NCBI GenBank assembly: GCA_004321885.1
Contig: SCQK01000014.1
Coordinates: forward strand, 32,001 to 96,000
Origin: Patescibacteria group bacterium
GTDB lineage: Bacteria > Patescibacteriota > Patescibacteriia > Magasanikbacterales > GWA2-37-8
Reading direction: 5' to 3'
Length of the DNA: 64,000 nucleotides
The notes beneath the pieces are model-generated. The model had not been told where the DNA came from. It did not search any database and saw only the letters and a list, made by a program, of their open reading frames with translations. Below are positions 5,087 to 63,802 of this stretch, piece after piece; within the stretch, counting starts at the first letter, position 1, and each line of letters starts with the position of its first letter. A program made the translations under genes and the position numbers.

Positions 5087-6822
5087 AGATAATTACAGAC
5101 AAAATTGAGAAGTTTTTAACGGAAGCCGGAATCGTCGGTGAAATTAAATTTAAAAAACCCGATCCAAAAATATTGGATGTTTTTGATTACGATATTGCTA
5201 TTCCTTGTTTTAATTTAAAAACGAGGGTGCAAGATAACGCGGAAGGGGTCATGGTTGCGCAAAGGATTGTTGGTAGTTTGAAAAGCGCAAGGACAGAGCT
5301 GCCGTTTTTAGATGAAGTTAAACAAGTAAGTTCATACGTTAATATTACGTTAAATGCAGGCGAAATAGCTAATTTAGTTTTGCGGCAAGCCACAAAAAAA
5401 GATTTTGGCGCCAGCAAAACGGGCAAAGGAAAGAAAGTAATGGTGGAGTTCGCGCATCCCAACACGCACAAGCAATTTCACATCGGCCATTTGCGCAATA
5501 TCTGCACCGGCGAAAGCGTGGCGCGTATTTTGGAAAACGCCGGCCACAAAGTTATCCGCGCGAACTATCAGGGCGATGTGGGGATGCACATTGCAAAATG
5601 CCTGTGGGGCATTTTGAAATTTCCAATTTCCAATTTTCAATTTCCAAAAGCGATTGACGAGCGGGTGAAATTGCTTGGCGAAGCGTACGCGAAAGGGGCG
5701 CTGGCTTACGAAGAAAGCGAACTGGCCAAAAAAGAAATTGAAGTCATCAATGAAAAAATTTATTCTAAAAAAGATAAAGATATAAATAAACTTTACAAAG
5801 AAACGCGCGAATGGAGCTTGGAATATTTTGGTAAAATTTACAAACGAGTCGGCAGTAAGTTTGACCGGCTGTATTTTGAATCAGAGACATTCGCGCCGGG
5901 CAAGGACATAGTGCTGGTCGGTTTGAACAAAGGGATTTTCAAGGAAAGCCAGGGCGCGGTAATTTTTGAGGGAGAAAAATACGGCTTGCACAATCGCGTG
6001 TTTTTGAACAGCCGCGGCTTGCCGGTTTACGAAGCCAAAGATTTGGCGCTGGCGAGACTGCAATTTCAGGAATACAAACCAGAATATATTTTACACGTCG
6101 TGGCCAAAGAACAGACAGATTATTTCAAGGTTGTTTTCAAAGCCATGGAGTTTACTTTGCCCGAGAGCAAAGGCCGGGAAAAGCATTTGGTCTATGGCTG
6201 GGTGAGTTTGAAAGAAGGCAAGATGAGTTCGCGTTCGGGCAACGTGGTTTTGGGCGAGTGGCTTTTGGATGAAGTAAAAAAGAAAGTGGCTGAAGCAATG
6301 AAAGAGCACAATGTGCGGGATAGGGAAGGGGTGCTGGAAAAAGTGGCTATGGCCGCGGTGAAGTATGCTTTCCTGCGAACAAGCATCAGCAACGATATTG
6401 TTTTTGATATAAACCAGTCGGTGAGTTTAACCGGGGACAGCGGGCCGTATCTGCAATACATTGTCGCGCGCATTAGTAGCATCCTCAAAAAAGCAGGCAG
6501 GGGTTCGTTTGGTCTCCCCTTTAGAAGGGGAGATGCCCCGCAAGGGCAGAGGGGTATTGAACCGGCAGAAAAATCACTCCTTCTTTCTCTTTCCGAATTT
6601 CCCGAGGTCGCCCAAAGCGCGGCCGAAGAAACAGACCCGTCCAAAATCGCGCATTATCTGCTGGGACTGGCGCAATCATTCAATAGTTTTTACGGCCAGT
6701 GTCCGGTATTACCGGCCGATGAAGAAATGAAAAAATTCAGATTAGCGATAATTAGGGCGGTAAAAAATGTAATGGAAAAAGGATTGCGTTTGCTCGGCAT
6801 TGAGAGCGTGGAAGAGATGTGA
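5083..6822 (+). CDS. argS: Arginyl-tRNA synthetase
   Basis: VEFAHPNTHKQFHIGHLRN class-I motif, C-terminal DALR-type anticodon-binding region. ATG at 5083 overlaps the tyrS stop (ATGA). The ORF track start 5065 is a GTG extension. Confidence 0.85.
   Translation: MKIITDKIEKFLTEAGIVGEIKFKKPDPKILDVFDYDIAIPCFNLKTRVQDNAEGVMVAQRIVGSLKSARTELPFLDEVKQVSSYVNITLNAGEIANLVLRQATKKDFGASKTGKGKKVMVEFAHPNTHKQFHIGHLRNICTGESVARILENAGHKVIRANYQGDVGMHIAKCLWGILKFPISNFQFPKAIDERVKLLGEAYAKGALAYEESELAKKEIEVINEKIYSKKDKDINKLYKETREWSLEYFGKIYKRVGSKFDRLYFESETFAPGKDIVLVGLNKGIFKESQGAVIFEGEKYGLHNRVFLNSRGLPVYEAKDLALARLQFQEYKPEYILHVVAKEQTDYFKVVFKAMEFTLPESKGREKHLVYGWVSLKEGKMSSRSGNVVLGEWLLDEVKKKVAEAMKEHNVRDREGVLEKVAMAAVKYAFLRTSISNDIVFDINQSVSLTGDSGPYLQYIVARISSILKKAGRGSFGLPFRRGDAPQGQRGIEPAEKSLLLSLSEFPEVAQSAAEETDPSKIAHYLLGLAQSFNSFYGQCPVLPADEEMKKFRLAIIRAVKNVMEKGLRLLGIESVEEM
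6514..6534. repeat. In-frame palindrome TCTCCCC-TTTAGAA-GGGGAGA inside argS
   Basis: Perfect 7-bp arms. Encodes GLPFRRGDA in an ArgRS insertion region. Confidence 0.6.
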
Positions 6823-34384: not shown

Positions 34385-34400
34385 AATTGACTTTTTAATA

Positions 34401-34459
34401 GAACCCGCGGCCTCCCCGACGTACCGTCGGGGCGCGCTACCAACTGCGCTACAGCCCGA
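34401..34459 (-). pseudogene. Partial tRNA-Pro copy (acceptor 5' strand + D-arm + T-arm start) with anticodon arm replaced by CCCCGAC-GTACC-GTCGGGG hairpin
   Basis: 28 nt (34432-34459) identical to the 5' portion of tRNA-Pro (34082-34109) and gaacccgcggcc (34401-34412) identical to 34055-34066. No 3' acceptor strand. Confidence 0.6.
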
Positions 34460-34509: not shown

Positions 34510-34620
34510 ACCGACAGTAGGGTATCACGTTTTTTTGCGCTTTTCAAGGGGTAAAATTTGTGATAGAATATGCCCTGTCCGCTGGATTACCAGCGACAGA
34601 TAATTTTTACCCCCACCCAA

Positions 34621-34643
34621 CCTCCCCCTTTTAAGGGGGGAGG
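34621..34643. repeat. GC-rich palindrome CCTCCCCC-TTTTAA-GGGGGGAGG upstream of pilT start
   Basis: Member of the CTCCCC-TTAxAAA-GGGGAG family. Lies in the N-terminal extension of the track ORF before MNIESY. Confidence 0.55.
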
Positions 34644-34656
34644 GGAGGAGAAACCT

Positions 34657-35688
34657 ATGAACATAGAATCATATTTCAAGGAAGCCATAAAACAGGACGC
34701 GTCGGATTTGCATTTGGTGGGCGGGGAACTGCCGCGCCTGCGCGTGGAAGGCGAGCTCAAAGAGCTTTCCGACAAGCCGCTGAATAATAAAGAACTGGAG
34801 ACCGCGATTTACACTCTCATCTCCAAAGCCCAGCAAGATAGGTATGAGGAAGACAAGGAACTGGACTTTAGCTATTCCGTGGACCAGACCCGCTTCCGCG
34901 TGAACTTGCACCAGCAGGAAGAAAACATCGGCCTGGCCGCCCGCCTGATTCCCAAAACCATTCCCAAACCAGAAGACTTGCACTTTGAACCAACGCTCTC
35001 CGAACTCACCAAACTGATGGACGGTTTGATACTGGTCACCGGTCCCACGGGTTGCGGCAAATCCACCACCATTGCCAGCCTGATTGAAGAGATAAACAAA
35101 AGCCGCCAGGCGCACATTGTGACCGTGGAAGACCCGATAGAATTTTTGTTTGAAGATAAAAAAAGTTTGATAGAACAGCGCGAGGTGGGCACGGACACGA
35201 AATCGTTTGCCAACGCCCTGAAGTATGTGCTGCGCCAGGACCCGAACGTGATATTCGTGGGCGAAATGCGCGACCCCGAGACAATTTCCACGGTGCTGAC
35301 CGCGGCCGAAACCGGCCACCTGGTTTTTTCTACCCTGCACACGCCCAGCGCGGCCGAGGCCGTGGAGCGCATTGTGGACGTGTTTGAGGGCGGCCGGCAA
35401 AAACAGGTTTTGATTCAGCTGTCGTCGGTACTGCGGGCCGTGGTGGCCCAGCAATTACTGCCGGCCAAAGACGGCGGCCGCGTGCCGGCGCGCGAGATTT
35501 TGATAAACAATTCGGCCGTTTCCAACCTCATCCGCGAAAACAATATCAACCAGATAAAATCTTCCATCCAAACCGGCGCCAAAGACGGCATGGTGACCAT
35601 GGAAAATTCCATCAAGCAATTGCTGAAAGAGGGCTGGATTACCGAGGATACAGCCGAGAAAAGAGCGGGCAAGGCGCGGAGGGTGTAA
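34657..35688 (+). CDS. pilT: Type IV pilus retraction ATPase PilT
   Basis: LILVTGPTGCGKSTT (Walker A), PilT-type Asp box, His box, 343 aa from MNIESYFKEAIKQDASDLHL. Confidence 0.8.
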   Translation: MNIESYFKEAIKQDASDLHLVGGELPRLRVEGELKELSDKPLNNKELETAIYTLISKAQQDRYEEDKELDFSYSVDQTRFRVNLHQQEENIGLAARLIPKTIPKPEDLHFEPTLSELTKLMDGLILVTGPTGCGKSTTIASLIEEINKSRQAHIVTVEDPIEFLFEDKKSLIEQREVGTDTKSFANALKYVLRQDPNVIFVGEMRDPETISTVLTAAETGHLVFSTLHTPSAAEAVERIVDVFEGGRQKQVLIQLSSVLRAVVAQQLLPAKDGGRVPAREILINNSAVSNLIRENNINQIKSSIQTGAKDGMVTMENSIKQLLKEGWITEDTAEKRAGKARRV

Positions 35689-36312: not shown

Positions 36313-36361
36313 TTACCCATTCTTAATCCTCCCCTTGTAAAGAGGAGGGTAATACAGCAAT

Positions 36362-39300
36362 ATGCGAAGAGCGAAAATAATATTTTTCATTATTATCTTC
36401 GCCGCGTTCAGCTCGGCCGCCTTTGGCGGTCGTGTTTTGTCTTTTGACACCAATATCGCTCATCCAAACATCGCGACATTGGCCGTAAAGCTTTACAATG
36501 AGAATTTTGACCCGGATTTAACCGAGGAACAGACGCGTTGGATAGAGCAGGGAGCTGTTGCCGAGGACACGCCCAACCGGTGGTACAACCATTTTTACGA
36601 CCCGGTCTACAATCGTGGCATCTGGTTTGGCAAACAACATTTATCAGCCAAAAATTGGGCTGTTAATCCCCGAGCTCAAACTGGTTTTGCCTTGGGCGAC
36701 AAGAGCTGGCAAAGAGCGCTTGATGATTTTAGAAATAGTGATGAGGAAAAGGCATACAGGGCCCTGGGGCATATTATTCACCTTATTTCAGATATGGCTG
36801 TGCCGGCGCATACCCGAGACGACATTCATCCGCTCGGCGATTCGTTTGAGCAATTTGTGAAAAAGAATTGGGCCAGCGCGACAAAGAATTTGCGCTATGG
36901 AATGATATCTGTATCTGATTTAGATTCAGCTTTTGATTCTGTGGCCAATTATTCAAACAATAATTTTTATAGTGATGATACGATTGAAAATAAAAAATAT
37001 CAGAATCCAGATTTGAATCACATTATACTAAAATATGTGGAAGTTGGAAATGGCATTTCTTATAAATTTTTAGTCAATTCAGTTGGTGGTCAAGAAAGTT
37101 TGCTTTGTAGAACTAATAGCAATAAGAATTGGTTAGACACTCTTGGGGATGACATTCTAAAAGAGTGCAAAGTTGGTGATGATCTCGTTCTCACCGACTA
37201 CTCCCGCCACCTGCTCCCAAAAGCCATCGGTTACAGCGCCGGAATTATTAAACTATTTTTTGACCAAGCCAAGAGTGATAAGGAAGTGGGTAATTTGCCC
37301 GGCAAAAGAACTAGTTTTTCCGGATACCTTGATCAATTTCTTGGTTTCGCTGTCTCGGGAGCGGAAAAATTATACAGCGTGATTAAGATAGCGTTAGGAA
37401 TAGAGCCGGCTTATTCCGAGGGAAGCGCGGAGATTGAGGAACAAGCGCCCTCCCTCCCGCCAGAGGCAGGCAAGCATCAAGGGGAGGGAACGACCACAAC
37501 CACACCAACCACGCCAACCACGACCAACGTCGCGCAGACCACGACCAAACCCAAACCCCCCGCCACCATAAAAAAAGCGGTCGGGAGAAAGACCGGGGCG
37601 TCTGGCGCGCCGGTCGCTGGCTCCATAGTCCCCGACTTAGTCGGGGCTGTGGAGCCCAATGCCAGCACCCTGGCTCCACAGCCTCCTGCGGGGGACAATG
37701 GAGCCAGCCAAGAAGGAACGACGACCACGCCTGTGTATTTTCCTCCATCGTCAAGAGACGGGGGAGCGTATCCGCCAAATACCCCTCCCCTAATAGGGGA
37801 GGGAGATGTTGTGCCTACCACCACCCCGACACCCACCACCACCCCGTCTTCTACAACTACCCCTTCGTCCACCACCACCCCAACCCCCTCCCCCACCACC
37901 ACTCCCACCAGCACTCCGGCTCTGCCACCGCCACCGCTCGTCATCAGCGAAATCGCCTGGGCCGGCACCTCGGCCGCCAGGTCCAACAACGAATGGCTGG
38001 AGCTTTACAACAACTCCACCTCGTCAATAGATTTCACCTCGGGCTGGAAAATTTTTGTTTCCGGCGCCCAGCTCAACATCTCCAATTTTGTTAATCCAGT
38101 CATTTTACCAAAAACATATTACCTGTTGGAACGCACCGACGATTTTACGGTCAAAGAAATTTCCGCGGACGCGATTTACACCGGCGCCCTAAACAATAAT
38201 GGCGCGAAAGTGGAACTCGTCAATCCAAGCGGAGAAACCATAGACACCGTGGACGGCTCCTCGGGCTGGTTCGCGGGTCAGGCCAGTCCCAGTTACGCTA
38301 GTATGGAAAGAAAAGACCTCACCGCCAGCGGTACGAGTCCCGGCAACTGGCAATCCAGCATTGGCGGGCGCGCCACTGGCACGAGCGATGAAATGCCGCC
38401 CAAGCCCATCATGGGCTCGCCCAAACGCCCCAATTTCGGCTACATTGTGCTTACTGGTACCCAAGCCCAAACCACCCGCACACTCACCACAGACAACAGT
38501 CCCTATCTTTTGTGGAGTTACACTATTCCAGCCGGCTTTACATTAAACATCAATCCCGGCGTGGTGATAAAAAGTTACACCCAAAGCGCGGTGATGATTG
38601 TAGATGGGACGCTGAATGTTGGCGGGGGAGACAATAAAGTCATCTTCACCTCGGGCAAAGACCAGTCTTTCACCAGTCCCGACCTCAACCTGATAGACAT
38701 CAATTATCTTTGGACAACTCCCGGGCCGGCTGAAAAAGATTGGCAGGGGCTGTGGTTCAAGCCCGGCTCCCAGGGCAACATCGCCAATACAGAAATCAGA
38801 TACGCGGGCAAAGAGTTTTACCCCACCGGAGGCCCGGCCATGTCCCAGGGCATTCGCGCCGAATCCGGGCTTTCCCTATCAAACTCCACCATCGCCAACT
38901 CCGGCTCCGCGCTTATCTTTCTCCAAAATGCTTCTTCCACCATTACTAACACCAACTTCACCGGCTCCGATCTGGCCATAGAAGCCAACAATTCCCGGCT
39001 CACAATCAACGGCGCGCACTTCACGGGCTTTGGCTCACAGGGCCCTTTGCAAATCAAAGACGCCTGGCCCGAATTTTCCAATCTCACCTACACCACCGGC
39101 ACTGTGCCTTATGCCCGTTTGTACATGGTAAAAACCAGCGCCCCGCAGACCACGGCCAAAAAAGAAATCAATTACCTCTTTGACAACATTGAAGTGGCGT
39201 CTTCCACCACCTTAAACATTGAACCCGGCGCCAACGTCAAAATGACCAACAGCTCCATACTCACGGTCAATGGCGTTCTCAATGCCAATGGCACGCCCAC

Positions 39301-39805
39301 CGACCCCGTCAGTATCGGTCAATTTACCCCGGCCATTCCCAATACTTTATGGGGTTCACTCTACTTCACGGGCAATACTTCCACCATCAAATACACCAAC
39401 ATCTCTGGCGGCGGGCACATACCATCGGGCAGTGGCGTATTCGGCGCCATCACGGCGCAAAATGCCGAAGTCATCATTGAAAACAGCGCCATAAAAAACA
39501 CGGAACAGCCGGGCAATGCCATACAATCCGCCAACGCAGTCATTAGAATAAAGAACAGCGAGATTTCCAATGACACCAAGACGCGCGAAGACCCGCCCGC
39601 GGGCCCGTCGCCTTACAATATCGGGGTCAGCATCGGCGGCGGCAGTCTTCACCTGGACAACACCCTGTTCAAAAATCTCAACATCGGCTTGCAGGGAACA
39701 TACATATCTGGTAGTTTGCCACAGGTGGAGCTGGTCAACATGAATACATCCACTGCGTATTTTCAGAATGTGGGGCGGGTGATGAATCCGTTGGTATGGT
39801 TTTAG
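36362..39805 (+). CDS. Giant secreted surface protein: N-terminal Zn-phospholipase-C/S1-P1-like domain, P/T-rich linkers, lamin-tail domain, parallel beta-helix repeats
   Basis: Signal peptide MRRAKIIFFIIIFAAFSSAAFG. TTTTPTTPTTT and TPTPTTTPSSTTTPSSTTTPTPSPTTTPTSTP linkers. LTD motif EWLELYNNSTSSIDF...NNNGAKVELVNPSGETIDTVD. NxTIxNSGS beta-helix repeats. Confidence 0.6.
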   Translation: MRRAKIIFFIIIFAAFSSAAFGGRVLSFDTNIAHPNIATLAVKLYNENFDPDLTEEQTRWIEQGAVAEDTPNRWYNHFYDPVYNRGIWFGKQHLSAKNWAVNPRAQTGFALGDKSWQRALDDFRNSDEEKAYRALGHIIHLISDMAVPAHTRDDIHPLGDSFEQFVKKNWASATKNLRYGMISVSDLDSAFDSVANYSNNNFYSDDTIENKKYQNPDLNHIILKYVEVGNGISYKFLVNSVGGQESLLCRTNSNKNWLDTLGDDILKECKVGDDLVLTDYSRHLLPKAIGYSAGIIKLFFDQAKSDKEVGNLPGKRTSFSGYLDQFLGFAVSGAEKLYSVIKIALGIEPAYSEGSAEIEEQAPSLPPEAGKHQGEGTTTTTPTTPTTTNVAQTTTKPKPPATIKKAVGRKTGASGAPVAGSIVPDLVGAVEPNASTLAPQPPAGDNGASQEGTTTTPVYFPPSSRDGGAYPPNTPPLIGEGDVVPTTTPTPTTTPSSTTTPSSTTTPTPSPTTTPTSTPALPPPPLVISEIAWAGTSAARSNNEWLELYNNSTSSIDFTSGWKIFVSGAQLNISNFVNPVILPKTYYLLERTDDFTVKEISADAIYTGALNNNGAKVELVNPSGETIDTVDGSSGWFAGQASPSYASMERKDLTASGTSPGNWQSSIGGRATGTSDEMPPKPIMGSPKRPNFGYIVLTGTQAQTTRTLTTDNSPYLLWSYTIPAGFTLNINPGVVIKSYTQSAVMIVDGTLNVGGGDNKVIFTSGKDQSFTSPDLNLIDINYLWTTPGPAEKDWQGLWFKPGSQGNIANTEIRYAGKEFYPTGGPAMSQGIRAESGLSLSNSTIANSGSALIFLQNASSTITNTNFTGSDLAIEANNSRLTINGAHFTGFGSQGPLQIKDAWPEFSNLTYTTGTVPYARLYMVKTSAPQTTAKKEINYLFDNIEVASSTTLNIEPGANVKMTNSSILTVNGVLNANGTPTDPVSIGQFTPAIPNTLWGSLYFTGNTSTIKYTNISGGGHIPSGSGVFGAITAQNAEVIIENSAIKNTEQPGNAIQSANAVIRIKNSEISNDTKTREDPPAGPSPYNIGVSIGGGSLHLDNTLFKNLNIGLQGTYISGSLPQVELVNMNTSTAYFQNVGRVMNPLVWF
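37619..37656. mobile_element. 38-nt palindromic element GGCTCCATAGTCCCCGACTTAGTCGGGGCTGTGGAGCC inserted in frame (encodes [13 protein letters not shown])
   Basis: 100% identical, in inverse orientation, to 62514-62551 inside guaA. Both are read in the same frame by the host genes. Confidence 0.7.
37783..37803. repeat. In-frame palindrome CCCTCCCC-TAATA-GGGGAGGG
   Basis: Perfect 8-bp arms. Encodes PPLIGEG in the surface protein. Confidence 0.55.
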
Positions 39806-41298
39806 ATAAAATTTTCAAAAAAATTCAGGCAGTGGCCCAAAAAAATAAGACCCCGTGCTATGTGGTGGGCGGTTTTGTGCGCGATATGCTGATGGACAAG
39901 GCGCGGGAAAAAGACGTGGATTTTGTGATTTTGGGAAGCGGGCTGGGGTTTGCCAAAAAATTTGACCAGGCCATGAAGCAAGAGGGGAGTTTAATTGAGT
40001 TTCCGGATTTTGACACGGCGCGGTATATTTTGACCCCTTCTAAATCCTCCCCTTATCAAGGGGAGGATAACGAGCAAATCGTGCTGGAGTTCGCGGGCGC
40101 GCGAGGGGAAGAATATGACGAGAAAAGCCGCAAGCCCAGGGTAAAGCCGGCCACGTTAAAACAAGATTTAGAGCGCCGCGATTTTACCATCAACGCGATG
40201 GCCATGAGTATTGACGACTACCCCTCCGGCCGTCCGCCACAGGGCGGACGGCCGCCTCCCCTTATAAAGGGGAGGCTGATAGACCCGTTCGGCGGGCAGG
40301 AAGATTTGAAAAATAAAATTCTGCGCACGCCGCTTGACCCGGACAAAATATTTTCCGAGGACCCTTTGCGCATGATGCGCGCCGCGCGCTTCGCGGGCCA
40401 GCTTGGTTTTGCCATAGACACTTTTGCTTTGCAGGCCATTTACCGCAACCGCGAGCGCCTGAAAATCGTTTCGGCCGAGCGCGTGCAAGAGGAGCTGTTA
40501 AAAATGCTTTCCACGCCCGAGCCATCTATTTGTCTGGCTCTGCTTTTTCAAACCCACCTGTTGGATTTGGTGTTGCCAGAGGTGGCCAAGCTGGACGGGG
40601 TGGAAGAAATTTACGGCCACCAGCACAAAAACAATTTATCACACACCTTTAAAGTGGTGGACAATATCGCCGAGCGCTCGCCCAAAGTCATGTTGCGCTT
40701 TGCCGGCCTGCTGCACGACATCGGCAAGGCGTCCACTAAAAAATTTATTCCGCGTCAGGGCTGGACTTTTTACCAGCACGAGCACATGGGCAAAAAAATG
40801 GTTTATCAAATCGGCAAGCGCCTGCGCTTGTCCACGGACCACACGGATTATTTGGCCAAAATGGTGCGCTGGCACCAGCAGCCGATAAGCCTGATGGACA
40901 AGGGCATCACGGATTCGGCGGTGCGTCGCCTGATTGTGAATTTGGGTGATGAGTTGGAAGATTTGTTGATACTTGGCCGGAGCGACATTACCACGGGCAA
41001 TCCGTTGAAAAAAGAAAAACGCCTGGGCAATTACGACCGACTGGAAAAGCGCATTGCCGAGGTTTTGGAAAAAGATAAATTGCGCGCCTTTCAGTCGCCG
41101 GTGCGCGGGGAAGAAATCATGAAAGAGTGCGGCTTGAAAGCCGGGCCGACAGTGGGAAAAATAAAAGACGCGATAGAGGAGGCCATTCTTGACGGAATCA
41201 TACCAAATGAGTATGATAAAGCGAGGGAGTACTTGTTTGAAATTAAGAATAAGTATCTGGAAAAAGCCCAGGATTGGGAAAGAGTGAAAAATATATGA
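39796..41298 (+). CDS. cca: CCA-adding tRNA nucleotidyltransferase with HD domain
   Basis: VVGGFVRDMLM...DVDFV (PolyA_pol head), C-terminal HD motif FAGLLHDIGK. Contains two adjacent palindromic inserts. Confidence 0.8.
   Translation: MVLDKIFKKIQAVAQKNKTPCYVVGGFVRDMLMDKAREKDVDFVILGSGLGFAKKFDQAMKQEGSLIEFPDFDTARYILTPSKSSPYQGEDNEQIVLEFAGARGEEYDEKSRKPRVKPATLKQDLERRDFTINAMAMSIDDYPSGRPPQGGRPPPLIKGRLIDPFGGQEDLKNKILRTPLDPDKIFSEDPLRMMRAARFAGQLGFAIDTFALQAIYRNRERLKIVSAERVQEELLKMLSTPEPSICLALLFQTHLLDLVLPEVAKLDGVEEIYGHQHKNNLSHTFKVVDNIAERSPKVMLRFAGLLHDIGKASTKKFIPRQGWTFYQHEHMGKKMVYQIGKRLRLSTDHTDYLAKMVRWHQQPISLMDKGITDSAVRRLIVNLGDELEDLLILGRSDITTGNPLKKEKRLGNYDRLEKRIAEVLEKDKLRAFQSPVRGEEIMKECGLKAGPTVGKIKDAIEEAILDGIIPNEYDKAREYLFEIKNKYLEKAQDWERVKNI
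40046..40068. repeat. In-frame palindrome TCCTCCCC-TTATCAA-GGGGAGGA in cca
   Basis: Perfect 8-bp arms, encodes SSPYQGED. Confidence 0.6.
40227..40276. repeat. Tandem in-frame palindromes CGGCCGTCCGCC-acag-GGCGGACGGCCG + GCCTCCCC-TTATAAA-GGGGAGGC in cca
   Basis: 12-bp and 8-bp perfect stems sharing one G. Encode SGRPPQGGRPPPLIKGRL between conserved Cca blocks. Confidence 0.6.
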
Positions 41299-43022
41299 AA
41301 AGAAAATATTGGATTATCGGGGGAATAGTCGTGTTGGCCATCGGCGGCCTGGTTTATCGCGGCTACAAAAAAAGCCATCCGCCGGCGCAATACGAAACAG
41401 TGAAAATTCAGCGCGGGGATTTGAAACAGACCGTGGAGGTAACCGGCAAGGTGGAGGCAAACGATGATTTGTCTTTGCGTTTTGAGGTGCCTGGCACAGT
41501 GGGCAATGTGGCGGTAAAAGAAGGGCAGAAGGTTAAAAAAGGGCAGACACTGGCGTCTTTGCGTCTGGCCGACCTCAACGCGGCCGTGGCCCAGGCCGCG
41601 GCCAATTTGAACCAAAAATTAGCCGGCGCCACGCAGTCGGAACGGGATTATTACAAGGCCGTGATGGAACAGGCCCAGGCCGACTGGGATAAGGCCAAAG
41701 TGGACACGGCCGCCAGTATTGCCACAGCCGAGTCCGCGTACATCACCGCCAAAAATAATCTTAAGCTGGCCGAGGGCGGGGAAAACAGCCTCATTGTAAA
41801 TAACGCCTACGACAACGCCATCATCACGGCTCAAACTTCCCTTTCGGTTTTAGACGACGGCCTCACCCAGGCCGACAATATCTTGGGCATAGACAACACT
41901 CTGGCCAACGACAGTTTTGAAAGTTATTTATCTTTGCTTGACCTAAACAAATTAAATTTAGCAAAATCCTCTTATGCCACTGCCAAAGAAGCCAAGGCCG
42001 CGGCGCGCGCCGCGATTTCGGCTCTGGCCGTAAAAGTTTCCAGTCATAGCGATGTGGACAGCGCGCTCGTCAAAGCCGCCGATGCCGCGACCAGGATGAA
42101 TACCTTGCTTTCGCAGGTCTCGGAAGTTTTATACAACACCGCGCCCATGGGTTCGCTGACACAAGCCTCTTTGGACGCCAAAAAAACTACTATTGAAACC
42201 ACGCGCGCCAGCGTCAATGCCCAGTATAAAAAAATAGTGGAGGCCCAGCAGGCTATCGTGGACGCCAAGAGCAGTTATTCAAACTACCAGGTGGCCTATG
42301 ATAAAGCGGCCAAAGATTTAGCTGATGCCAAAGCCGCCGCCGAGAGCGCCCTTAAAATAAAAGAAGCGCTGTACAACCAGGCGTACGCGAATTGGCAGAA
42401 TAAAACTAGCCCCACCCGCGCCGTGGACGTGGCCGCCTATCGCGCCGCTCTGGCCCAGGCCGCGGCCAACAGAAACAAGGCTATCATCGCCGCGCCCATA
42501 GACGGCCAGGTGGCCAAGATAAACAAAAAAGTCGGCGAGCTGGTAACCTCGGCCGACGTGATGATAAATTTGATATCCCCGCATTTTGTGATAAAGGTGG
42601 ATGTGCCCGAGACCGATGTTTCCAAGCTGACCGTGGGCGACCAGGCGGCGATAACCTTGGACGCCTGGGGCAGTGACACAAAATTTTCCGGCGGGGTAAC
42701 GGCAATAGAATCCAATTCCACCGAGATTCAGGATGTGGTTTATTACAAGGTTAAAATTCGCATCATGCCGGCCAGCGCGCCGGTTAAAGCCGGCATGACC
42801 GCGAATATTACCGTGGACACGGATGCGCGCGCCGGAGTTTTGTTTGTGCCCCTACGCTCGGTGCGCACCGATGTGGAAGACAAGCGCTTTGTGAAGGTGT
42901 TAGAGAACGGCGAAGAGAAAGACGTGTACGTGAGATTGGGTTTGAAAGCGAATGAGGGGAAGGTGGAAATTTTAGAGGGGCTGACCGAGGGGCAGGAAGT
43001 GATTCTCTCCATAAAAAAATAA
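41295..43022 (+). CDS. HlyD/MacA-family periplasmic adaptor (membrane fusion protein) with long coiled coil
   Basis: N-terminal TM, biotinyl/lipoyl-like VKIQRGDL...GKVEA...GQKVKKGQTLASL, extended Ala/Gln-rich coiled coil, C-terminal beta-barrel. ATG 41295 overlaps the cca stop. Confidence 0.75.
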   Translation: MKRKYWIIGGIVVLAIGGLVYRGYKKSHPPAQYETVKIQRGDLKQTVEVTGKVEANDDLSLRFEVPGTVGNVAVKEGQKVKKGQTLASLRLADLNAAVAQAAANLNQKLAGATQSERDYYKAVMEQAQADWDKAKVDTAASIATAESAYITAKNNLKLAEGGENSLIVNNAYDNAIITAQTSLSVLDDGLTQADNILGIDNTLANDSFESYLSLLDLNKLNLAKSSYATAKEAKAAARAAISALAVKVSSHSDVDSALVKAADAATRMNTLLSQVSEVLYNTAPMGSLTQASLDAKKTTIETTRASVNAQYKKIVEAQQAIVDAKSSYSNYQVAYDKAAKDLADAKAAAESALKIKEALYNQAYANWQNKTSPTRAVDVAAYRAALAQAAANRNKAIIAAPIDGQVAKINKKVGELVTSADVMINLISPHFVIKVDVPETDVSKLTVGDQAAITLDAWGSDTKFSGGVTAIESNSTEIQDVVYYKVKIRIMPASAPVKAGMTANITVDTDARAGVLFVPLRSVRTDVEDKRFVKVLENGEEKDVYVRLGLKANEGKVEILEGLTEGQEVILSIKK

Positions 43023-43028
43023 ACCCCA

Positions 43029-43067
43029 CCCTGCCACCACACCAAAGATTTTGGTGTGGTGGCAGGG
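43029..43067. repeat. Strong intergenic hairpin CCCTGCCACCACACCAAA-gat-TTTGGTGTGGTGGCAGGG
   Basis: 18-bp perfect stem between the adaptor and ABC ATPase genes. Shares the CACACCAA/TTGGTGTG core with the inverted repeats bounding the tRNA-Gly intervening sequence. Confidence 0.55.
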
Positions 43068-43081
43068 GGAGGGGTATTTTT

Positions 43082-52299: not shown

Positions 52300-53631
52300 T
52301 CAAATTTTTATTTCTTTGATTTTATTTTGTAAAGTTTGTTTTGATTTTACTCGCACCCGCACAAATTCCGGCGTATATCCCGCGAAGTAGCCGGATTTTT
52401 TTTGTTCAAACAGTACTGGGCGGGTTTTGCCGGTGAATTTGGCCGCGAATTTTTTGGCCTCGGCTTTGGAAATTTTGAGCAGTTTTTTTACGCGTTCGGT
52501 TTTGATTTTGTCCTGCACTTGGTTTGGCATTTTGGCCGCGGCAGTGCCAGGGCGCGGAGAAAAAGGGAAAACGTGTATTTTGGCAAAGCCCCCGCCAAAG
52601 GCGGGTCCGTCTTGGGCGGACATTTTTTTTACAAACGCGCAGGTCTCGGTGAATTCTTTTTCGGTCTCGCCCGGGAAGCCGACGATAATGTCGGTGGTAA
52701 AAGAAAACAGGGGATTGGCCTGGCGCAGTTTTTGAACAATTCCAAGATATTGTTTCGCGTTATATCCGCGCCGCATCCGTTTGAGCATTGTGTCCGAGCC
52801 CGATTGCAAGGACAAATGCCAATGCGGCATCAATCTGTTTTGTCCCCCCTTTTTAAGGGGGGAATAAAAGGGGGGTAAGAATAATTTTATTAATTTTTCC
52901 GAAATCAGCCGCGGGTCCAGCGAACCGAGCCGGATGCGCTCTATTTTTGTTTCTCGTAAAATTTTTTTCAGCAGTTCGGCCAAGTCTCCCCCACTGCCAG
53001 AGGGGGGGACGAAGGGGGGGTGGGAGCTGTCTTTGTATTGGCAAATATTTACTCCGGTCAGTACCGCTTCTTTATAGCCGTCTTTTTCCGCTTCTTTGAT
53101 TTTTTTTATCACCGCCTCGGATGGCACACTTCGCGTTCGGCCGCGGAAAGATGGAATAATACAATAGGCGCAGTTAAAATTACAGCCGGTTTGGATTTTG
53201 ATGAGAGTGCGTGTTCTATCATTGCGTAGCCGAGCGGTCGGATGTGTTCGTAGCGCCTTATGCCGCCGCAGCGGCATGGCCGAGGCCTCGCGGCCGAGGG
53301 AAGCGAGAACACATCCGACCGCTCCTCTGCGAGCTTCGCAATGGCTCACAACTTCCTCATTCCCTCTCGCCACAAAATCAATCTCGGGCAAATCCTTGTT
53401 TTCCAGACAGCCAACCGCGATTACGTACGCCCCGCGCCGTTTGGCCCGCCGAATCATCTCGCGCGTGGTCTGACTGGCGTCCACGGTCACTCCGCAGGCG
53501 CGCACCACGGCTACGTCTTCGTGCGCGCCAAAAAGCACGACAGAAAAACCTCGCTGTACGAGGTCTTTTTTCAGTTCTTCTGTCTCGGCTTGATTCAATT
53601 TGCACCCCAGGGTGTGGAATGAAATTTTCAC
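52300..53631 (-). CDS. Radical-SAM methylthiotransferase, MiaB/RimO/MtaB family (MtaB-like) carrying palindromic inserts
   Basis: N-terminal MTTase ISFHTLGCKLNQAETE, radical SAM IQTGCNFNCAYCIIP, C-terminal TRAM. 443 aa, inflated by inserts. Confidence 0.75.
   Translation of the reverse strand: MKISFHTLGCKLNQAETEELKKDLVQRGFSVVLFGAHEDVAVVRACGVTVDASQTTREMIRRAKRRGAYVIAVGCLENKDLPEIDFVARGNEEVVSHCEARRGAVGCVLASLGREASAMPLRRHKALRTHPTARLRNDRTRTLIKIQTGCNFNCAYCIIPSFRGRTRSVPSEAVIKKIKEAEKDGYKEAVLTGVNICQYKDSSHPPFVPPSGSGGDLAELLKKILRETKIERIRLGSLDPRLISEKLIKLFLPPFYSPLKKGGQNRLMPHWHLSLQSGSDTMLKRMRRGYNAKQYLGIVQKLRQANPLFSFTTDIIVGFPGETEKEFTETCAFVKKMSAQDGPAFGGGFAKIHVFPFSPRPGTAAAKMPNQVQDKIKTERVKKLLKISKAEAKKFAAKFTGKTRPVLFEQKKSGYFAGYTPEFVRVRVKSKQTLQNKIKEIKI
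52843..52863. repeat. In-frame palindrome TCCCCCC-TTTTTAA-GGGGGGA in the MtaB-like gene
   Basis: Encodes (minus strand) FYSPLKKGG. A second imperfect one at about 52985-53010 encodes HPPFVPPSGSGG. Confidence 0.5.
53220..53344. mobile_element. About 125-bp highly structured palindromic insertion with 18-bp perfect terminal inverted repeats inside the MtaB-like coding sequence
   Basis: GAGCGGTCGGATGTGTTC (53232-53249) and its exact reverse complement (53307-53324). Outer CATTGCG/CGCAATG. Internal ATGCCGC-cgca-GCGGCAT. GC-rich. Translated as a 40-aa insert between the MTTase and radical-SAM domains. Confidence 0.55.
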
Positions 53632-61972: not shown

Positions 61973-63802
61973 TTACTCCCACTCAATAGTTCCGGGTGGT
62001 TTGTTGGTGAGGTCGTAGAAGATGAAGTCCACGGCGTTTAGAGCGTGGATTTTTTTGATGATTTTTTTCAGAGTGGGCGAGGGTATGACGCCAAACGAGA
62101 CGGTCATCGCTTCTTCTGATTCCACGGGTCGCAGGACAATTGATTCGCCGTGCTTGTGCCCAAACGGCACGAGCACCGTGGGCATTTGCCAGATTTTTTG
62201 GCATTGCTTGTCGGTCAAAATGGCGCTGTCGGCGATGTCATCTATTTTTCGCAAAAGGTCCAGCCGTTTTTTGGTAAGATACGCTTTTTTCAGCGTGGCT
62301 TTTGGCAATGATTTTTTGTCGCCGGAAACAAGCAGTAGAACGCGGTTGATGTCTTTGTGGGCGTTGGTGATTTTAGGAGAAAGGGATTGATAATACCCCC
62401 ACCCGGCCTCCCCCTTATAAAGGGGGAGGGGACCTGTGATAACGGCGGGGTGGGCGTAGGAGCGCTCGTCGCCTTGCACGCCCACGGATTTGATGGGGAG
62501 ACGCCAAATTGTTGGCTCCACAGCCCCGACTAAGTCGGGGACTATGGAGCCAGCGTCGTTTGATCCTTCCGAGCACAGACAGCGAATGGCCAGGCCCGGG
62601 CCCGGAAAGGGATGGCGGTTTATCAATTTTTGCGGCAGACCGAGCTTAAGGCCGATGGCGCGCACTTCGTCTTTGTACAAATCCTTAATCGGCTCTATGA
62701 TTTTTCCTTCGGCGATCATTTGTTTTATCCGCGGTACGCGATTGTGATGCGTTTTTATGACGTCGGCGTTTTTGGTGCCGCCCGATTCAATAGTGTCGGG
62801 ATAAATGGTGCCTTGGCCGACCAACCATTTGTCTCCGGTCAATTTTTTTCTACCAGACCCGCCTTTGGCGGGTTCGGCCATTACTTTGTCCACAATATCC
62901 AAAAACAAATCGCCGATGATTTTTCTTTTTTGTTCCGGATCAGACACGCCTTTGAGCGCGGATAAAAATTCTTTTTCGGCGTTATACACCCGCAAGTTGT
63001 CTCCCAGTCGCTTCAGAGCCGCTATGATTTTTTTTGTCTCATCCAACCGCATCAGGCCGCTGTCAATGTGCAAGCCGAAAACCCTTTTTTCGCCAAGCAC
63101 TTTTCGCAATAGGGCGAAACAAACCGTGGAATCAACGCCGCCGGAGACGAGCAAGAAAACATTTTTACCGCCCGCTTCCTTTTTTATATTTTTTTCAATT
63201 TGATCCAGCATTGTCTCTGTCGTCCAGTTTTTTTCCGCCCCGCAAATATTTAAAATAAAATTGGCCAGAATTTTTTTTCCTTCTTTCGTGTGATTTACTT
63301 CCGGATGAAACTGAAAGCCGAAGAACTTTTTTGATAAATTTTGCATGGCCGCCACCGAACGGTTGCCGGTTGAAGCGATTGGCGTAAAACCGAACGGCAG
63401 TTTGTCCACGTGATCGCCGTGGCTCATCCAGACAACGGTATTTTTACTTACGCCCGAAAAAATCGGCGAGGCGCTGACGGATAATTTCGCCAAACCGTAT
63501 TCACGCGCCTTGCCCGATTCAACGCGCCCGCCAAAAAAATCTGCCATCAACTGATGCCCGTAGCACAGACCCAAAATCGGCGCGCTGAGCGTAAAAATTT
63601 TTTTATCAAAAGGCAAACGCGCGTCGCGCACCAGCGAACGCGGACCGCCGGAAAGGATGATTCCACACGCGTTTTTCAATCGTTCGGCTTTGACGTTATT
63701 CGGGTAAATACGTGAAATAACGCCCAGTTCGCGCACGCGACGGGCGATGAGATGGGTGTACTGGGAACCGAAATCAAGGATGGCGATTTCACTTTTTGGC
63801 AT
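61973..63802 (-). CDS. guaA: GMP synthase (glutamine-hydrolysing), with in-frame palindromic inserts
   Basis: GATase [22 protein letters not shown]...GLCYGHQLM...HGDHV. ATP-PPase [14 protein letters not shown]-terminal dimerisation domain. ATG 63802. Confidence 0.85.
62407..62429. repeat. In-frame palindrome CCTCCCCC-TTATAAA-GGGGGAGG in guaA
   Basis: Encodes (minus strand) [11 protein letters not shown]. Confidence 0.55.
62514..62551. mobile_element. Second copy of the 38-nt palindromic element (encodes [13 protein letters not shown] in guaA)
   Basis: Reverse complement is identical (38/38) to 37619-37656. The flanking CGCTGG is also shared. Confidence 0.7.

Follow-up and report, generated by a model that had tools for sequence, protein, structure and literature searches.

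A composite hairpin repeat inside the cca gene of a Patescibacteria bacterium, best read as a REP/RPE-like selfish element with its own tag

Selfish palindromic repeats that lie in frame inside unrelated essential genes were described as Rickettsia palindromic elements (RPE; Ogata et al. 2000, summarised in PMC10969869 and PMC3733652). According to these summaries, translation of RPE adds surface peptides with which the proteins can still function, and several copies may reside in one gene. RPE-1 is given there as about 100-150 bp long with a conserved peptide (PMC10969869), and RPE-4 and RPE-6 as short elements with a CGTC tag (PMC3733652). REP and REPIN sequences, which are GTAG- or CGTC-tagged and RAYT-associated, are outlined as hairpins of 20-40 nt that bear an unpaired tag asymmetrically, beside one arm only (PMC3733652, PMC3116915). 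For the CGTC-tagged REP, the outline in PMC3733652 names an unpaired CGTC (or TGTC/CCTC), an 8-9-bp stem starting with two A/T pairs, a 4-5-nt loop and a CCA-like tail. These accounts also document in-frame repeats of both kinds inside genes, in some cases at one and the same site of orthologues (PMC3733652, PMC10969869). Our literature search retrieved nothing on the sequence described here or on in-frame palindromes of the candidate phyla radiation (CPR); outside Rickettsia and some scattered REP cases, hardly any essential genes with in-frame palindromic repeats are known. Miniature elements of the MITE type are non-autonomous repeats with terminal inverted repeats and a target-site duplication, usually 70-300 bp long. 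The SDR of heterocystous cyanobacteria are reportedly hairpin-capable mobile repeats of about 21-27 nt, often nested and also found inside MITE-like repeats; they are said to be mainly intergenic and restricted to cyanobacteria.

We analysed a window of 64 kb (the whole stretch of Patescibacteria DNA under study). Its cca gene contains a 57-nt segment (40220-40276) that, with a probability of roughly 65%, is one composite copy of a small dispersed non-coding hairpin repeat, selfish, of the REP/RPE type and filtered by selection. The features of the gene are as follows.

39796 to 41298, plus strand: host gene cca, an intact ORF of 500 aa for a class II CCA-adding enzyme / tRNA nucleotidyltransferase with HD domain
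40033 to 40068, plus strand: simple family-A copy (the third hairpin), consisting of the C-box ACCCCTTC, a spacer and the hairpin
40220 to 40227, plus strand: C-rich box ACCCCTCC, 8 nt, the 'tag' of the composite element
40227 to 40254, plus strand: hairpin 1, variable and nested, CGGCCGTCCGCC-ACAG-GGCGGACGGCCG, 12 perfect pairs
40254 to 40276, plus strand: hairpin 2, the conserved family-A hairpin G-CCTCCCC-TTATAAA-GGGGAGG-C, with the arms GCCTCCCC and GGGGAGGC and the loop TTATAAA

The Cca protein, with the Pfam domains PolyA_pol (residues 21-177), PolyA_pol_RNAbd (204-264) and HD (282-367), is 100% identical to the public protein P0001 of a Patescibacteria MAG. A preliminary description of this DNA had reported two back-to-back palindromes at 40227-40276, and the sequence reads as claimed: hairpins 1 and 2 have G40254 in common, and the final C of the C-box (C40227) doubles as the first base of hairpin 1. 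The segment thus consists of the C-box, a variable GC hairpin, one spacer base and the conserved hairpin CCTCCCC-TTATAAA-GGGGAGG, whose 8-bp stem extends to 10 bp when the T/A pairs of the loop are counted. Both hairpins lie within the ORF and are read as part of the peptide ...DDYPSGRPPQGGRPPPLIKGRLIDPF.... The folding energy of a 74-nt stretch was -27.7 kcal/mol as DNA (z = -7.3) and -46.3 kcal/mol as RNA (z = -6.1), and 0 of 200 shuffles were as good in either case. Across the window, 10 perfect hairpins with a stem of at least 10 bp and 4 with a stem of at least 12 bp were counted, against 0.77 and 0.13, respectively, expected from dinucleotide-preserving shuffles. The third hairpin, also noticed before, is present further upstream at 40044-40068 (ATCCTCCCC-TTATCAA-GGGGAGGAT), and its right arm overlaps ancestral Gly-Glu-Gly/Asp codons. 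Hairpins 2 and 3 are members of one family, here called family A, and hairpin 1 alone differs. An intrinsic terminator was rejected: neither hairpin is followed by a T-run, both are located inside a gene, copies of the family point in either direction, and the terminator scan did not list the two hairpins. In Rfam, only tRNAs reached the gathering score in the window, and permissive searches of 39900-40400 and of five element-bearing loci gave chance-level matches only.

Typical Cca orthologues comprise 484-485 aa compared to 500 aa here. Codon-level comparison with three of them (L244, L245, L246) revealed a clean 27-nt insertion at 40033-40059 (site 1). At the composite segment (site 2) there is no likeness to the orthologues except for a possible G-x-(K/R)-P-P match. 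The preliminary description had proposed an insert of 19 residues at this site; the net gain relative to the orthologues is only 12 nt (4 aa), and therefore the ancestral loop was replaced and not simply enlarged by an insertion. The view that the hairpin DNA is foreign to the ancestral gene was borne out, as the orthologue alignment shows other residues at this turn. In an AlphaFold model of Cca (mean pLDDT 85) the only segments with values below 50 are residues 83-92 and 145-152, i.e. the two inserts. The model places both sites in loops between strands, as had been expected for the insert. Site 2, however, belongs to the head domain, where motif B (RRDFT.N) precedes it and the IDPFGG strand follows, and it does not separate head and neck domains as had been supposed.

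The site-2 turn is hypervariable in length and sequence among orthologues, and in other Patescibacteria different hairpins or tandem repeats occupy the same two Cca turns. Relatives with 78-82% DNA identity and 85-89% protein identity differ in whether site 2 carries a 66-nt multi-copy hairpin. Hence, the idea of an integration hotspot holds in so far as unrelated hairpins recur at the same turn in other lineages. A true integration preference was not supported; selection for permissive loops explains the recurrence equally well or better, and the hotspot probably reflects such loops. We also considered a common ancestry of hairpin 2 with the CCCCCC...GGGGGG hairpins that P0006 and P0038 carry at the same turn, and rejected it as the simplest reading. 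In a distance analysis the window Cca forms a lone long branch that is no closer to P0006 and P0038 than to hairpin-free orthologues. The protein database contained no Cca relative closer than 70% identity, which leaves cca without a pair of empty and filled sites; mobility of the family is inferred from its dispersal. The syntenic 21.5 kb of the closest relative contained 0 CCCC..GGGG hairpins, which indicates that the expansion is lineage-specific.

A relaxed scan found about 10 family-A copies in the 64 kb. Seven of them are in frame inside five genes, namely cca, argS, guaA, a miaB-like gene and the gene of a surface protein; the 3 intergenic copies are all directly upstream of start codons. 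Outside cca, the following copies are referred to below.

6513 to 6554, minus strand (reverse to the gene): composite family-A copy in argS, encoding LPFRRGDAPQGQRG
34609 to 34643, plus strand: intergenic family-A copy ACCCCCACCC-AA-CCTCCCCC-TTTTAAG-GGGGGAGG, just 5' of the start of a T2SSE-type ATPase gene
36313 to 36348, plus strand: intergenic family-A copy TTACCC...CCTCCCC-TTGTAAA-GAGGAGG, whose stem has one mismatch; the ATG of the surface-protein gene follows after 13 nt
37779 to 37803, plus strand: family-A copy ACCCCTCCCC-TAATA-GGGGAGGG in the surface protein, read PPLIGEG, in a linker of this 1147-aa lamin-tail-domain protein
52843 to 52878, minus strand: family-A copy in the miaB/rimO-like radical-SAM gene, a 10-aa insertion relative to solved MiaB
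52984 to 53026, minus strand: imperfect family-A-like copy in the same miaB-like gene, with the C-box CCCACCCCCCC and a one-mismatch hairpin, a 6-aa insertion relative to solved MiaB
62395 to 62429, plus strand: family-A copy ACCCCCACCC-GG-CCTCCCCC-TTATAAA-GGGGGAGG in guaA, which is on the minus strand, so that the element is reversed relative to the gene

Hairpin 2 matched three other window loci with at most 3 mismatches, where 0 were expected. On the minus strand, the argS copy reads CCCCTCT-[GCCC-TTGCG-GGGC]-A-TCTCCCC-TTCTAAA-GGGGAGA and thus repeats the composite layout; the gene was identified by the Pfam domains tRNA-synt_1d and DALR_1, and the element corresponds to a variable or gapped stretch relative to solved ArgRS structures. 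The 52843-52878 copy reads TTACCCCCC-TTTTAT-TCCCCCC-TTAAAAA-GGGGGGA on the same strand. The guaA copy is read as 13 residues, opposite a 5-aa gap in the alignment to human GMP synthase. All ORFs that carry hairpins remain intact. The copies are translated in two forward phases and also in reverse (PPLIKG, SPYQGE, LPLYKGE/LPFRRGD); this use of several phases and both orientations indicates that the conserved entity is the nucleic acid and not the peptide. Every family-A copy keeps its own palindrome: 5 of 8 stem pairs have changed on both sides, 93.8% of the cells are paired, and the covariation score was reached by 0 of 500 shuffles. The window copies, 21-57 nt long, have no common flanks, terminal inverted repeats or target-site duplication. 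A further hairpin at 34414 (CCCCGAC/GTCGGGG) lies in a stretch that resembles the 5' part of a tRNA, yet neither ARAGORN (with or without introns) nor Rfam found a tRNA, and a tRNA origin was rejected.

The exact family-A 21-mer was found in more than 120 metagenome contigs of 31 to 60% GC, cyanobacteria included. Among the metagenome matches listed, a C-box CCCC[ACT][CT]C lies upstream in 93 of 113 unique copies of hairpin A, compared to 6 downstream, and most copies are situated outside long ORFs. The preliminary description had taken the site-2 pair for two unrelated hairpins in tandem, but the same arrangement recurs in argS and in at least seven unrelated metagenome copies, in which a different GC hairpin stands in the same slot with a 1-nt spacer. 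In several of these composites (L129, L162, L215, L225, L201) the box (T/A)ACCCCTC(C/T) directly precedes the nested hairpin. The nested hairpins differ in every composite copy, are always perfect and always occupy the same slot. The suggestion of an element inserted into an element agrees with this layout, in which hairpin 1 separates the C-box of a family-A element from its hairpin. Several nested hairpins have a GTCC...GGAC core, and the core of one (L126) equals that of an independent hairpin of the window, family B. In cyanobacterial (HIP1-rich) contigs, two inverted modules form the core of a repeat of ~170 nt with 21-nt terminal inverted repeats. A second copy of hairpin 1, which had been proposed as something to look for, was not detected in the window, in the metagenome contigs (exact 28-mer) or in the fetched loci. 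When the hairpin-1 stem was searched in the genome collection with a free loop, at least 120 loci were obtained, and the source genome was not among the matches listed. The stem was discarded as a query because it is too generic: the matches were mostly terminator-like hairpins of high-GC phyla and repeats of Elusimicrobia and Nitrospira. The viral contigs contained no copy of the family-B 38-mer and only 1 match to the family-A 21-mer, so phages are no obvious vehicle.

Compared to RPE, the window element is likewise an in-frame palindromic repeat of selfish type in essential genes of a small-genome bacterium, with several copies in one gene. The in-frame insertion into several essential genes corresponds to RPE-1, while size and multiple translated readings do not fit. 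Other differences to RPE are the length of 21-57 nt, the C-rich box in place of CGTC, the several phases and orientations, the slot for a variable second hairpin, and the occurrence in Patescibacteria and, in an extended form, in cyanobacteria. With REP/REPIN the family has in common its dispersal as short palindromes (20-40 nt) in many copies, an unpaired tag placed asymmetrically beside the hairpin, a lineage-specific abundance, inverted dimers (the cyanobacterial copies), occasional in-frame intragenic positions, sometimes the same site in orthologous genes, and the ability to sit inside other palindromes. It differs by the sequence of the tag, TACCCC(A/T)CC at 0-5 nt from the stem: the composite copy is flanked by ACCCCTCC and TTACCCCACCC, and no GTAG lies beside any copy. 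The CGTC within hairpin 1 is base-paired in the stem, the stems start with G/C and not with A/T pairs, and the 3' neighbour of hairpin 1 is one base plus hairpin A instead of a CCA tail; of the CGTC-type characters only the 4-nt loop fits. REP are mainly extragenic and downstream of genes, in contrast to the window copies, most of which are intragenic (7 of ~10), with the remaining 3 upstream of starts. A Pfam scan of 28 window ORFs, about half of the ~56 that reach 100 aa, detected neither a RAYT (Y1/HUH) gene nor any other transposase or mobilising gene. The cyanobacterial relatives resemble MITEs in their ~170-nt unit; the window copies share only box and hairpin and are far shorter than a MITE. 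Compared by description only, the nested layout and the presence of part of the family in cyanobacterial contigs recall the SDR.

We therefore favour a REP/RPE-like selfish repeat with its own tag as the best reading of the sequence. Such a repeat would consist of the C-rich box TACCCC[A/T]CC, an optional variable GC hairpin, one spacer base and CCTCCCC-TTATAAA-GGGGAGG. Its copies would be scattered through the Patescibacteria genome, both intergenic and in frame inside essential genes, and selection would spare only those that keep the reading frame open and lie in a surface loop; in Cca, the surviving copies would be those at two turns between head-domain strands. The translated peptides (SGRPPQGGRPPPLIKGR and TPSKSSPYQ) would be by-products without a role of their own. 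The repeat presumably spreads as DNA. An enzyme acting in trans could recognise the tagged hairpin in the manner of Y1/HUH RAYT or IS200-type transposases, or microhomology could guide templated copying. A fixed slot of the element may either capture the variable hairpin or give rise to it, and the apparent hotspot would mainly be a selection filter. Against this reading count the lack of a mobilising gene in the scanned half of the window ORFs, the lack of an empty and filled pair of sites for cca, the very short copies with no common flanks, terminal inverted repeats or target-site duplication, and the replacement at site 2 in place of a simple insertion.

Alternatively, hairpin 1, and perhaps all nested hairpins, could be a local product of template switching during replication or of hairpin-primed repair. 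Here, 11-12 nt of local sequence would have been copied inverted beside a resident family-A hairpin, events that the structured or cruciform-prone DNA of the element would promote. We consider this origin doubtful. It would account for a 12-bp stem without mismatches around a 4-nt loop that is unmatched elsewhere in the window, in the metagenome collection and in the fetched loci, for an individual perfect hairpin in the one slot of each composite, and for a net gain at site 2 of about one arm (12 nt). The left arm GGCCGTCCGCC moreover resembles the orthologous GGC GCG AAA CCG CC (G-A-K-P-P) of the nearest relative, and together with the missing second copy this likeness speaks against a purely selfish origin of hairpin 1. 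However, that relative is only 70% identical, the resemblance of G-R-P-P to A-K-P-P may be chance, and either arm of hairpin 1 could be the 'ancestral' one. The GTCC...GGAC cores common to several nested hairpins, including the family-B core in L126, suggest instead a pool of pre-existing mini-hairpins, and a template switch leaves the C-box and hairpin A themselves unexplained.

That C-box and hairpin form a functional nucleic-acid signal selected by the host seems very unlikely to us. Candidates are a REP-like protein-binding or supercoiling site, an mRNA-stability or ribosome-pausing structure, a hairpin in which a Shine-Dalgarno-like arm pairs with an anti-Shine-Dalgarno-like one, and a hairpin/G-quadruplex switch; a coding density of ~90% would force such a signal into genes. 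The perfect 21-mer with its C-box in contigs of such different GC content and phylum could mean a selected function and argues against selfishness; the paired changes that maintain palindromy would also suit such a signal. The G-rich strand (GGGGAGGG-TTA-GGGTGGGG) offers four G-tracts, GGGGAGG contains GGAGG and CCTCC, the 3 intergenic window copies are just 5' of start codons, and in a few metagenome copies the spacing of the G-rich arm would suit a Shine-Dalgarno sequence. Copies near start codons are nevertheless not enriched overall (11 of 103 copies compared to about 6.5 in shifted controls), and a mobile Shine-Dalgarno provider was rejected for this reason. Both orientations relative to transcription occur, positions are not conserved among orthologues, the syntenic region of the closest relative has no copy, and neither a T-run for termination nor an Rfam family match was found. 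Patchy, lineage-specific abundance is, according to PMC3733652, typical of selfish repeats. The hypervariability of the turn and the predicted disorder of its peptide would also suit a fast-evolving, lineage-specific Pro/Gly/Arg-rich loop whose palindromy is incidental or an assembly artefact. This explanation is scarcely credible given adjacent perfect stems of 12 and 10 bp with z-scores of -6 to -7, the covariation, and the same hairpin, loop and box in other genes and phases and in more than 120 independent contigs. Moreover, independent assemblies of other lineages show the same phenomenon, with all ORFs intact.

The window extends in-frame palindromic repeats to the CPR, with at least five genes affected in 64 kb. 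A more far-reaching proposal, which we rate as quite unlikely, is that an undescribed mobilisation system acting across phyla, or a hairpin/G-quadruplex structural switch, uses the module of box and hairpin as its recognition unit. The module would then have a dedicated slot between box and hairpin that generates or captures new perfect GC hairpins; tolerated in essential genes of Patescibacteria, it would be a running source of loop variation in core enzymes. The box, the slot and the hairpin together define a concrete family, which gives a search for the mobilising enzyme a starting point. The same two Cca turns are landing pads for differing hairpin and tandem-repeat elements across Patescibacteria, and this recurrence provides a natural map of permissive loops in the catalytic head domain. 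The inserts inflate protein lengths and create spurious 'lineage-specific' motifs (PPLIKG, SPYKGE, LPFIRGG), and they can mislead the alignment and annotation of CPR proteins.

Two abutting palindromes at 40227-40276 within the CCA-adding enzyme gene (cca) match the sequence reported in the preliminary description, and the third hairpin placed upstream in the same gene is also present.

39796..41298, + strand: cca, 500 aa, the host ORF (domain search and public protein match)
40044-40068: third hairpin
40227-40254, + strand: hairpin 1, CGGCCGTCCGCC-ACAG-GGCGGACGGCCG (sequence inspection)
40254-40276, + strand: hairpin 2, GCCTCCCC-TTATAAA-GGGGAGGC; G40254 is common to hairpins 1 and 2

The ORF product is identical to a public protein from a Patescibacteria MAG and contains poly(A)-polymerase/CCA head, RNA-binding and HD domains (Pfam); the region of hairpins 1 and 2 is translated as ...DDYPSGRPPQGGRPPPLIKGRLIDPF... 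The cca palindromes are well above chance level. A 74-nt stretch of cca is far more stably folded than its 200 shuffles (z = -7.3 for DNA, -6.1 for RNA). Perfect hairpins with stems of 10 bp or more number 10 in the window (0.77 expected), and those with 12 bp or more number 4 (0.13 expected).

Hairpin 2 and the third hairpin are members of one dispersed family, termed family A, whose conserved hairpin is CCTCCCC-TTATAAA-GGGGAGG. This sequence was found at 4 window loci at up to 3 mismatches, versus 0 expected. Scanning the window for hairpins, and under relaxed settings for CCCC...GGGG, yielded about 10 copies:

6513: in argS
14900, 34621 and 36328: intergenic, each directly upstream of a start
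37783: in a lamin-tail-domain (LTD) surface protein gene
40044 and 40254: in cca
52843 and 52988: in a miaB/rimO-like radical-SAM gene
62407: in guaA

Both orientations and differing codon phases are represented among these copies; when read in one of the forward phases, the canonical loop TTATAAA gives a stop codon. The same DNA is translated as PPLIKG or SPYQGE and, in reverse orientation, as LPLYKGE or LPFRRGD, and therefore the nucleic acid is conserved, not the peptide. Each copy keeps a perfect stem despite sequence change (TCTCCCC/GGGGAGA, TCCCCCC/GGGGGGA, CCTCCCCC/GGGGGAGG). In 5 of 8 stem pairs both partners have changed, pairing holds in 93.8% of cells, and the covariation score was reached by none of 500 shuffles. 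Relative to the leading strand, 7 elements run forward and 3 in reverse.

The exact family-A 21-mer matches at least 120 loci on metagenome contigs, with 31-60% GC. Among the matches listed, a C-rich box, CCCC[ACT][CT]C, lies upstream in 93 of 113 unique copies and downstream in 6, usually as TTACCCCACCC with 3 or 5 nt between it and the stem. In at least 7 independent metagenome copies a second GC hairpin is nested between box and conserved hairpin, with a 1-base spacer to the latter. The nested hairpin is always perfect or nearly so and differs in every composite; none was found twice when the composites were compared. Two of these metagenome loci and the window copies, including those at the two Cca head-domain turns (site 1 with the third hairpin, site 2 with hairpins 1 and 2), read as follows:

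L129, metagenome composite: TTACCCCTCT-(GTCCGC AAA GCGGAC)-A-CCTCCCC...
L225, metagenome composite: AACCCCTCC-(GTCCCGAG CAA CTCGGGAC)-A-...
L162, L185, L201, L215: similar metagenome composites
cca site 2, same layout: CT-ACCCCTCC-(GGCCGTCCGCC ACAG GGCGGACGGCC)-G-CCTCCCC TTATAAA GGGGAGG-C
argS, minus strand, also composite: CCCCTCT-(GCCC TTGCG GGGC)-A-TCTCCCC TTCTAAA GGGGAGA
cca site 1, simple form: ACCCCTTC-TAA-ATCCTCCCC...

Given this recurrent box-hairpin-spacer-hairpin layout, hairpin 1 therefore lies inside a family-A element, in a repeatedly used slot. The tandem palindromes, previously called unrelated, are instead one composite element with the layout of argS and at least 7 metagenome copies. 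The stem of hairpin 1 is a common GC stem across many phyla and uninformative alone, and its exact 28-mer had no match in the metagenome collection.

The G-rich strand of the simple element, GGGGAGGG-TTA-GGGTGGGG (for example 62395-62429; metagenome loci L125-L242), has four G-tracts with 1-3-nt loops, a canonical predicted G-quadruplex motif. Two of the four tracts would compete with the hairpin, and in composite copies the variable hairpin would sit in the middle loop of the motif.

Cca orthologues (n = 120) are typically 484-485 aa long. The best non-self match is 70% identical, and the window protein forms a lone long branch that retains every invariant catalytic residue. At site 1, the turn that joins FDTARYI to xxIVLEFAGAR, a clean 27-nt insertion, ACCCCTTCTAAATCCTCCCCTTATCAA (40033-40059), stands out when the codons are aligned with those of three hairpin-free orthologues; it lies directly 5' of ancestral GGN-GAA-GGN codons that now form the right arm GGGGAGG. 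Site 2, the turn that leads from motif B (RRDFTxNAMA) to the IIDPFGGxxDL strand, measures about 20 residues in orthologues (e.g. VPVSVFAGAKPPTLTVVKKE) and 24 in the window, so the 57-nt element has taken the place of most of the ancestral loop and lengthened the turn by no more than 4 residues net. Given a faint resemblance of GGC CGT CCG CC to orthologue GGC GCG AAA CCG CC (G-R-P-P vs G-A-K-P-P), one of the arms of hairpin 1 may be ancestral. Exactly two segments, residues 83-92 and 145-152, fall below pLDDT 50 in an AlphaFold2 model that used 50 orthologues (mean pLDDT 85.2), and these are the two inserts. Both are predicted as loops between strands of the head domain and therefore lie away from the head-neck boundary, where the insert had been expected.

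Orthologues that are longer at these turns likewise carry structured or repetitive DNA there, as seen in cca of other Patescibacteria:

L121: CCCCCC-TCAA-GGGGGG together with a tandem repeat
L122: a pair of hairpins that abut each other at site 1 and a C-run/G-run hairpin at site 2
L123: (AAATCA)n at site 1, a 66-nt hairpin (RGVKRRGDPMGLLRFSRND) at site 2

The 66-nt hairpin is present or absent within one clade (85-89% protein, 78-82% DNA identity) and takes the place of about 42 nt of the standard site-2 loop. Its junctions differ between orthologues P0091 and P0103, and further copies lie elsewhere on the same contigs. The 3' junction was directly before (I/L)IDPF in every case examined. At recB, different REPs have been reported at one position shared by orthologues (PMC3733652). 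Recurrence with replacement would be expected from a selection filter for permissive loops. Of the suggested hotspot or element-into-element insertion, recurrent use of the turn and the position of hairpin 1 inside an element stand, and an integration preference is not needed.

The 66-nt long-stem repeat (TGTCATCGCGAGGAGT.AAGCGACGCGGCGATCC.ATGGGATTGCTTCGTTTCTCTCGCAATGACA) is multi-copy in other Patescibacteria (L123 10460-10530 and ~286, L248 ~1420-1490, L122 ~11577). Many Cca orthologues have short tandem repeats in place of hairpins at site 1 (~window 40030-40070), such as a 7-nt repeat giving QSPKSKVQS or (AAATCA)n giving KIKNQKSKIKI (L123 10001-11533); the turn therefore also gathers slippage-type insertions.

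In other host genes, the two miaB-like copies correspond to 6-aa and 10-aa gaps against solved MiaB and the guaA copy to a 5-aa gap against human GMP synthase. The argS copy lies within a variable, partly gapped stretch. A guaA hairpin of another family, B, falls in a break of the alignment to human GMP synthase. The closest relative, syntenic over 21.5 kb, has zero CCCC...GGGG hairpins, so the family-A expansion is lineage-specific.

Further hairpins were noted in the window:

37619-37656 (+), LTD surface protein gene, and 62514-62551 (-), guaA: family B, an identical 38-nt imperfect palindrome, GGCTCCATAGTCCCCGACTTAGTCGGGGCTGTGGAGCC
3024-3054 (+), valS: ATTCTGA-CCCCGAC-TCA-GTCGGGG-GAAGAAT, encoding VILTPTQSGEES
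~34390-34446 (-): tRNA-like 5' fragment with acceptor 5' strand, D arm, anticodon-like hairpin and T-arm start
43015-43081: long hairpin, 18-bp perfect stem CCCTGCCACCACACCAAA-GAT-TTTGGTGTGGTGGCAGGG, with A-run and T-run flanks

The two family-B copies, in unrelated genes, are translated alike over 13 residues, share about 43 identical nt including flanks and lie 85-130 nt from a family-A copy; their core is the nested hairpin of metagenome composite L126. The valS hairpin, between the ValRS catalytic and anticodon-binding domains, has a related core. The tRNA-like fragment lacks a 3' half and was not called by ARAGORN (with or without introns) or Rfam. Its 7-bp/5-nt anticodon-like hairpin, CCCCGAC-GGTAC-GTCGGGG, has the family-B core as its stem and may be a clue to where the family-B hairpin came from. 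Perfect hairpins with CCCC/GGGG arms have the C-run 5' and the G-run 3' in 12:0 (window) and 13:0 (L121-L123) cases; they are ~10-fold enriched over triplet shuffles, and the opposite polarity is absent. The 43015-43081 hairpin directly follows an HlyD-like gene that lies downstream of cca; it has the look of a bidirectional terminator, an example of a real one in this genome.

Outside the window, 30 of the listed metagenome loci are HIP1-rich (7.3 per 10 kb) and are assigned to cyanobacteria on this basis. There, two inverted modules (box and hairpin, then hairpin and G-box GGGGGGTAA) make up the core of a ~170-nt repeat bounded by 21-nt terminal inverted repeats, an organisation that recalls REP dimers (REPINs). 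A second subfamily lies within another long repeat of 57% GC. Many other listed contigs lack HIP1 and some resemble candidate phyla radiation (CPR) genomes, such as one of 35% GC with an in-frame copy in a holA-like gene. The 21-mer was found on only one viral contig. Rfam searches with the element regions gave no family match, and a literature search for the family-A sequence found no report.

The family-A repeats are dispersed, structured and non-coding, and they carry an asymmetric tag. In essential genes, copies keep the reading frame and lie at disordered loops, and the family combines a composite layout and variable slot with lineage-specific abundance. Spread would be a DNA-level process in which only copies keeping the frame open survive, and the translated peptide would itself serve no role. 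Both the tag-plus-hairpin design and the cyanobacterial inverted dimers are reminiscent of the DNA on which Y1/HUH transposases (RAYT, IS200/IS605) act; a Pfam scan of 28 window ORFs (about half of the window ORFs) found no gene of this kind. Microhomology-guided templated copying is an alternative route, and the ancestral codons reused as right arm at site 1 could represent microhomology at the target. For the variable hairpin, replication template switching is a serious alternative origin.

A selected function of the module, for instance as REP-like binding site, Shine-Dalgarno-like masking or hairpin/G-quadruplex switch, is possible. A G-rich arm or G-box (with GGAGG) does lie at Shine-Dalgarno distance from a start at 34621-34660 and 36328-36364 and in L149, L165, L185 and L214, and judged from such placement some intergenic copies may supply or mask a ribosome-binding site. 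However, we do not favour this explanation, because orthologues do not share the positions, copies are found in either orientation and there is no enrichment near start codons; Shine-Dalgarno-distance placement was not enriched across 103 copies versus shifted controls.

Small dispersed repeats of cyanobacteria (Elhai et al. 2008) may be relatives of the family-A element. The window copies have neither terminal inverted repeats nor target-site duplication, so they are not MITEs. The element works similarly to Rickettsia RPEs and intragenic REPs (PMC10969869; PMC3733652), but belongs to neither: it lacks the GTAG tag and the unpaired CGTC tag, its stems do not start with an A/T pair, it has no CCA tail, and it is far shorter than RPE-1. 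The phenomenon falls within a documented class; its interest lies in palindromes within essential genes of CPR bacteria, in a core that is identical across phyla and in the slot for a variable hairpin.
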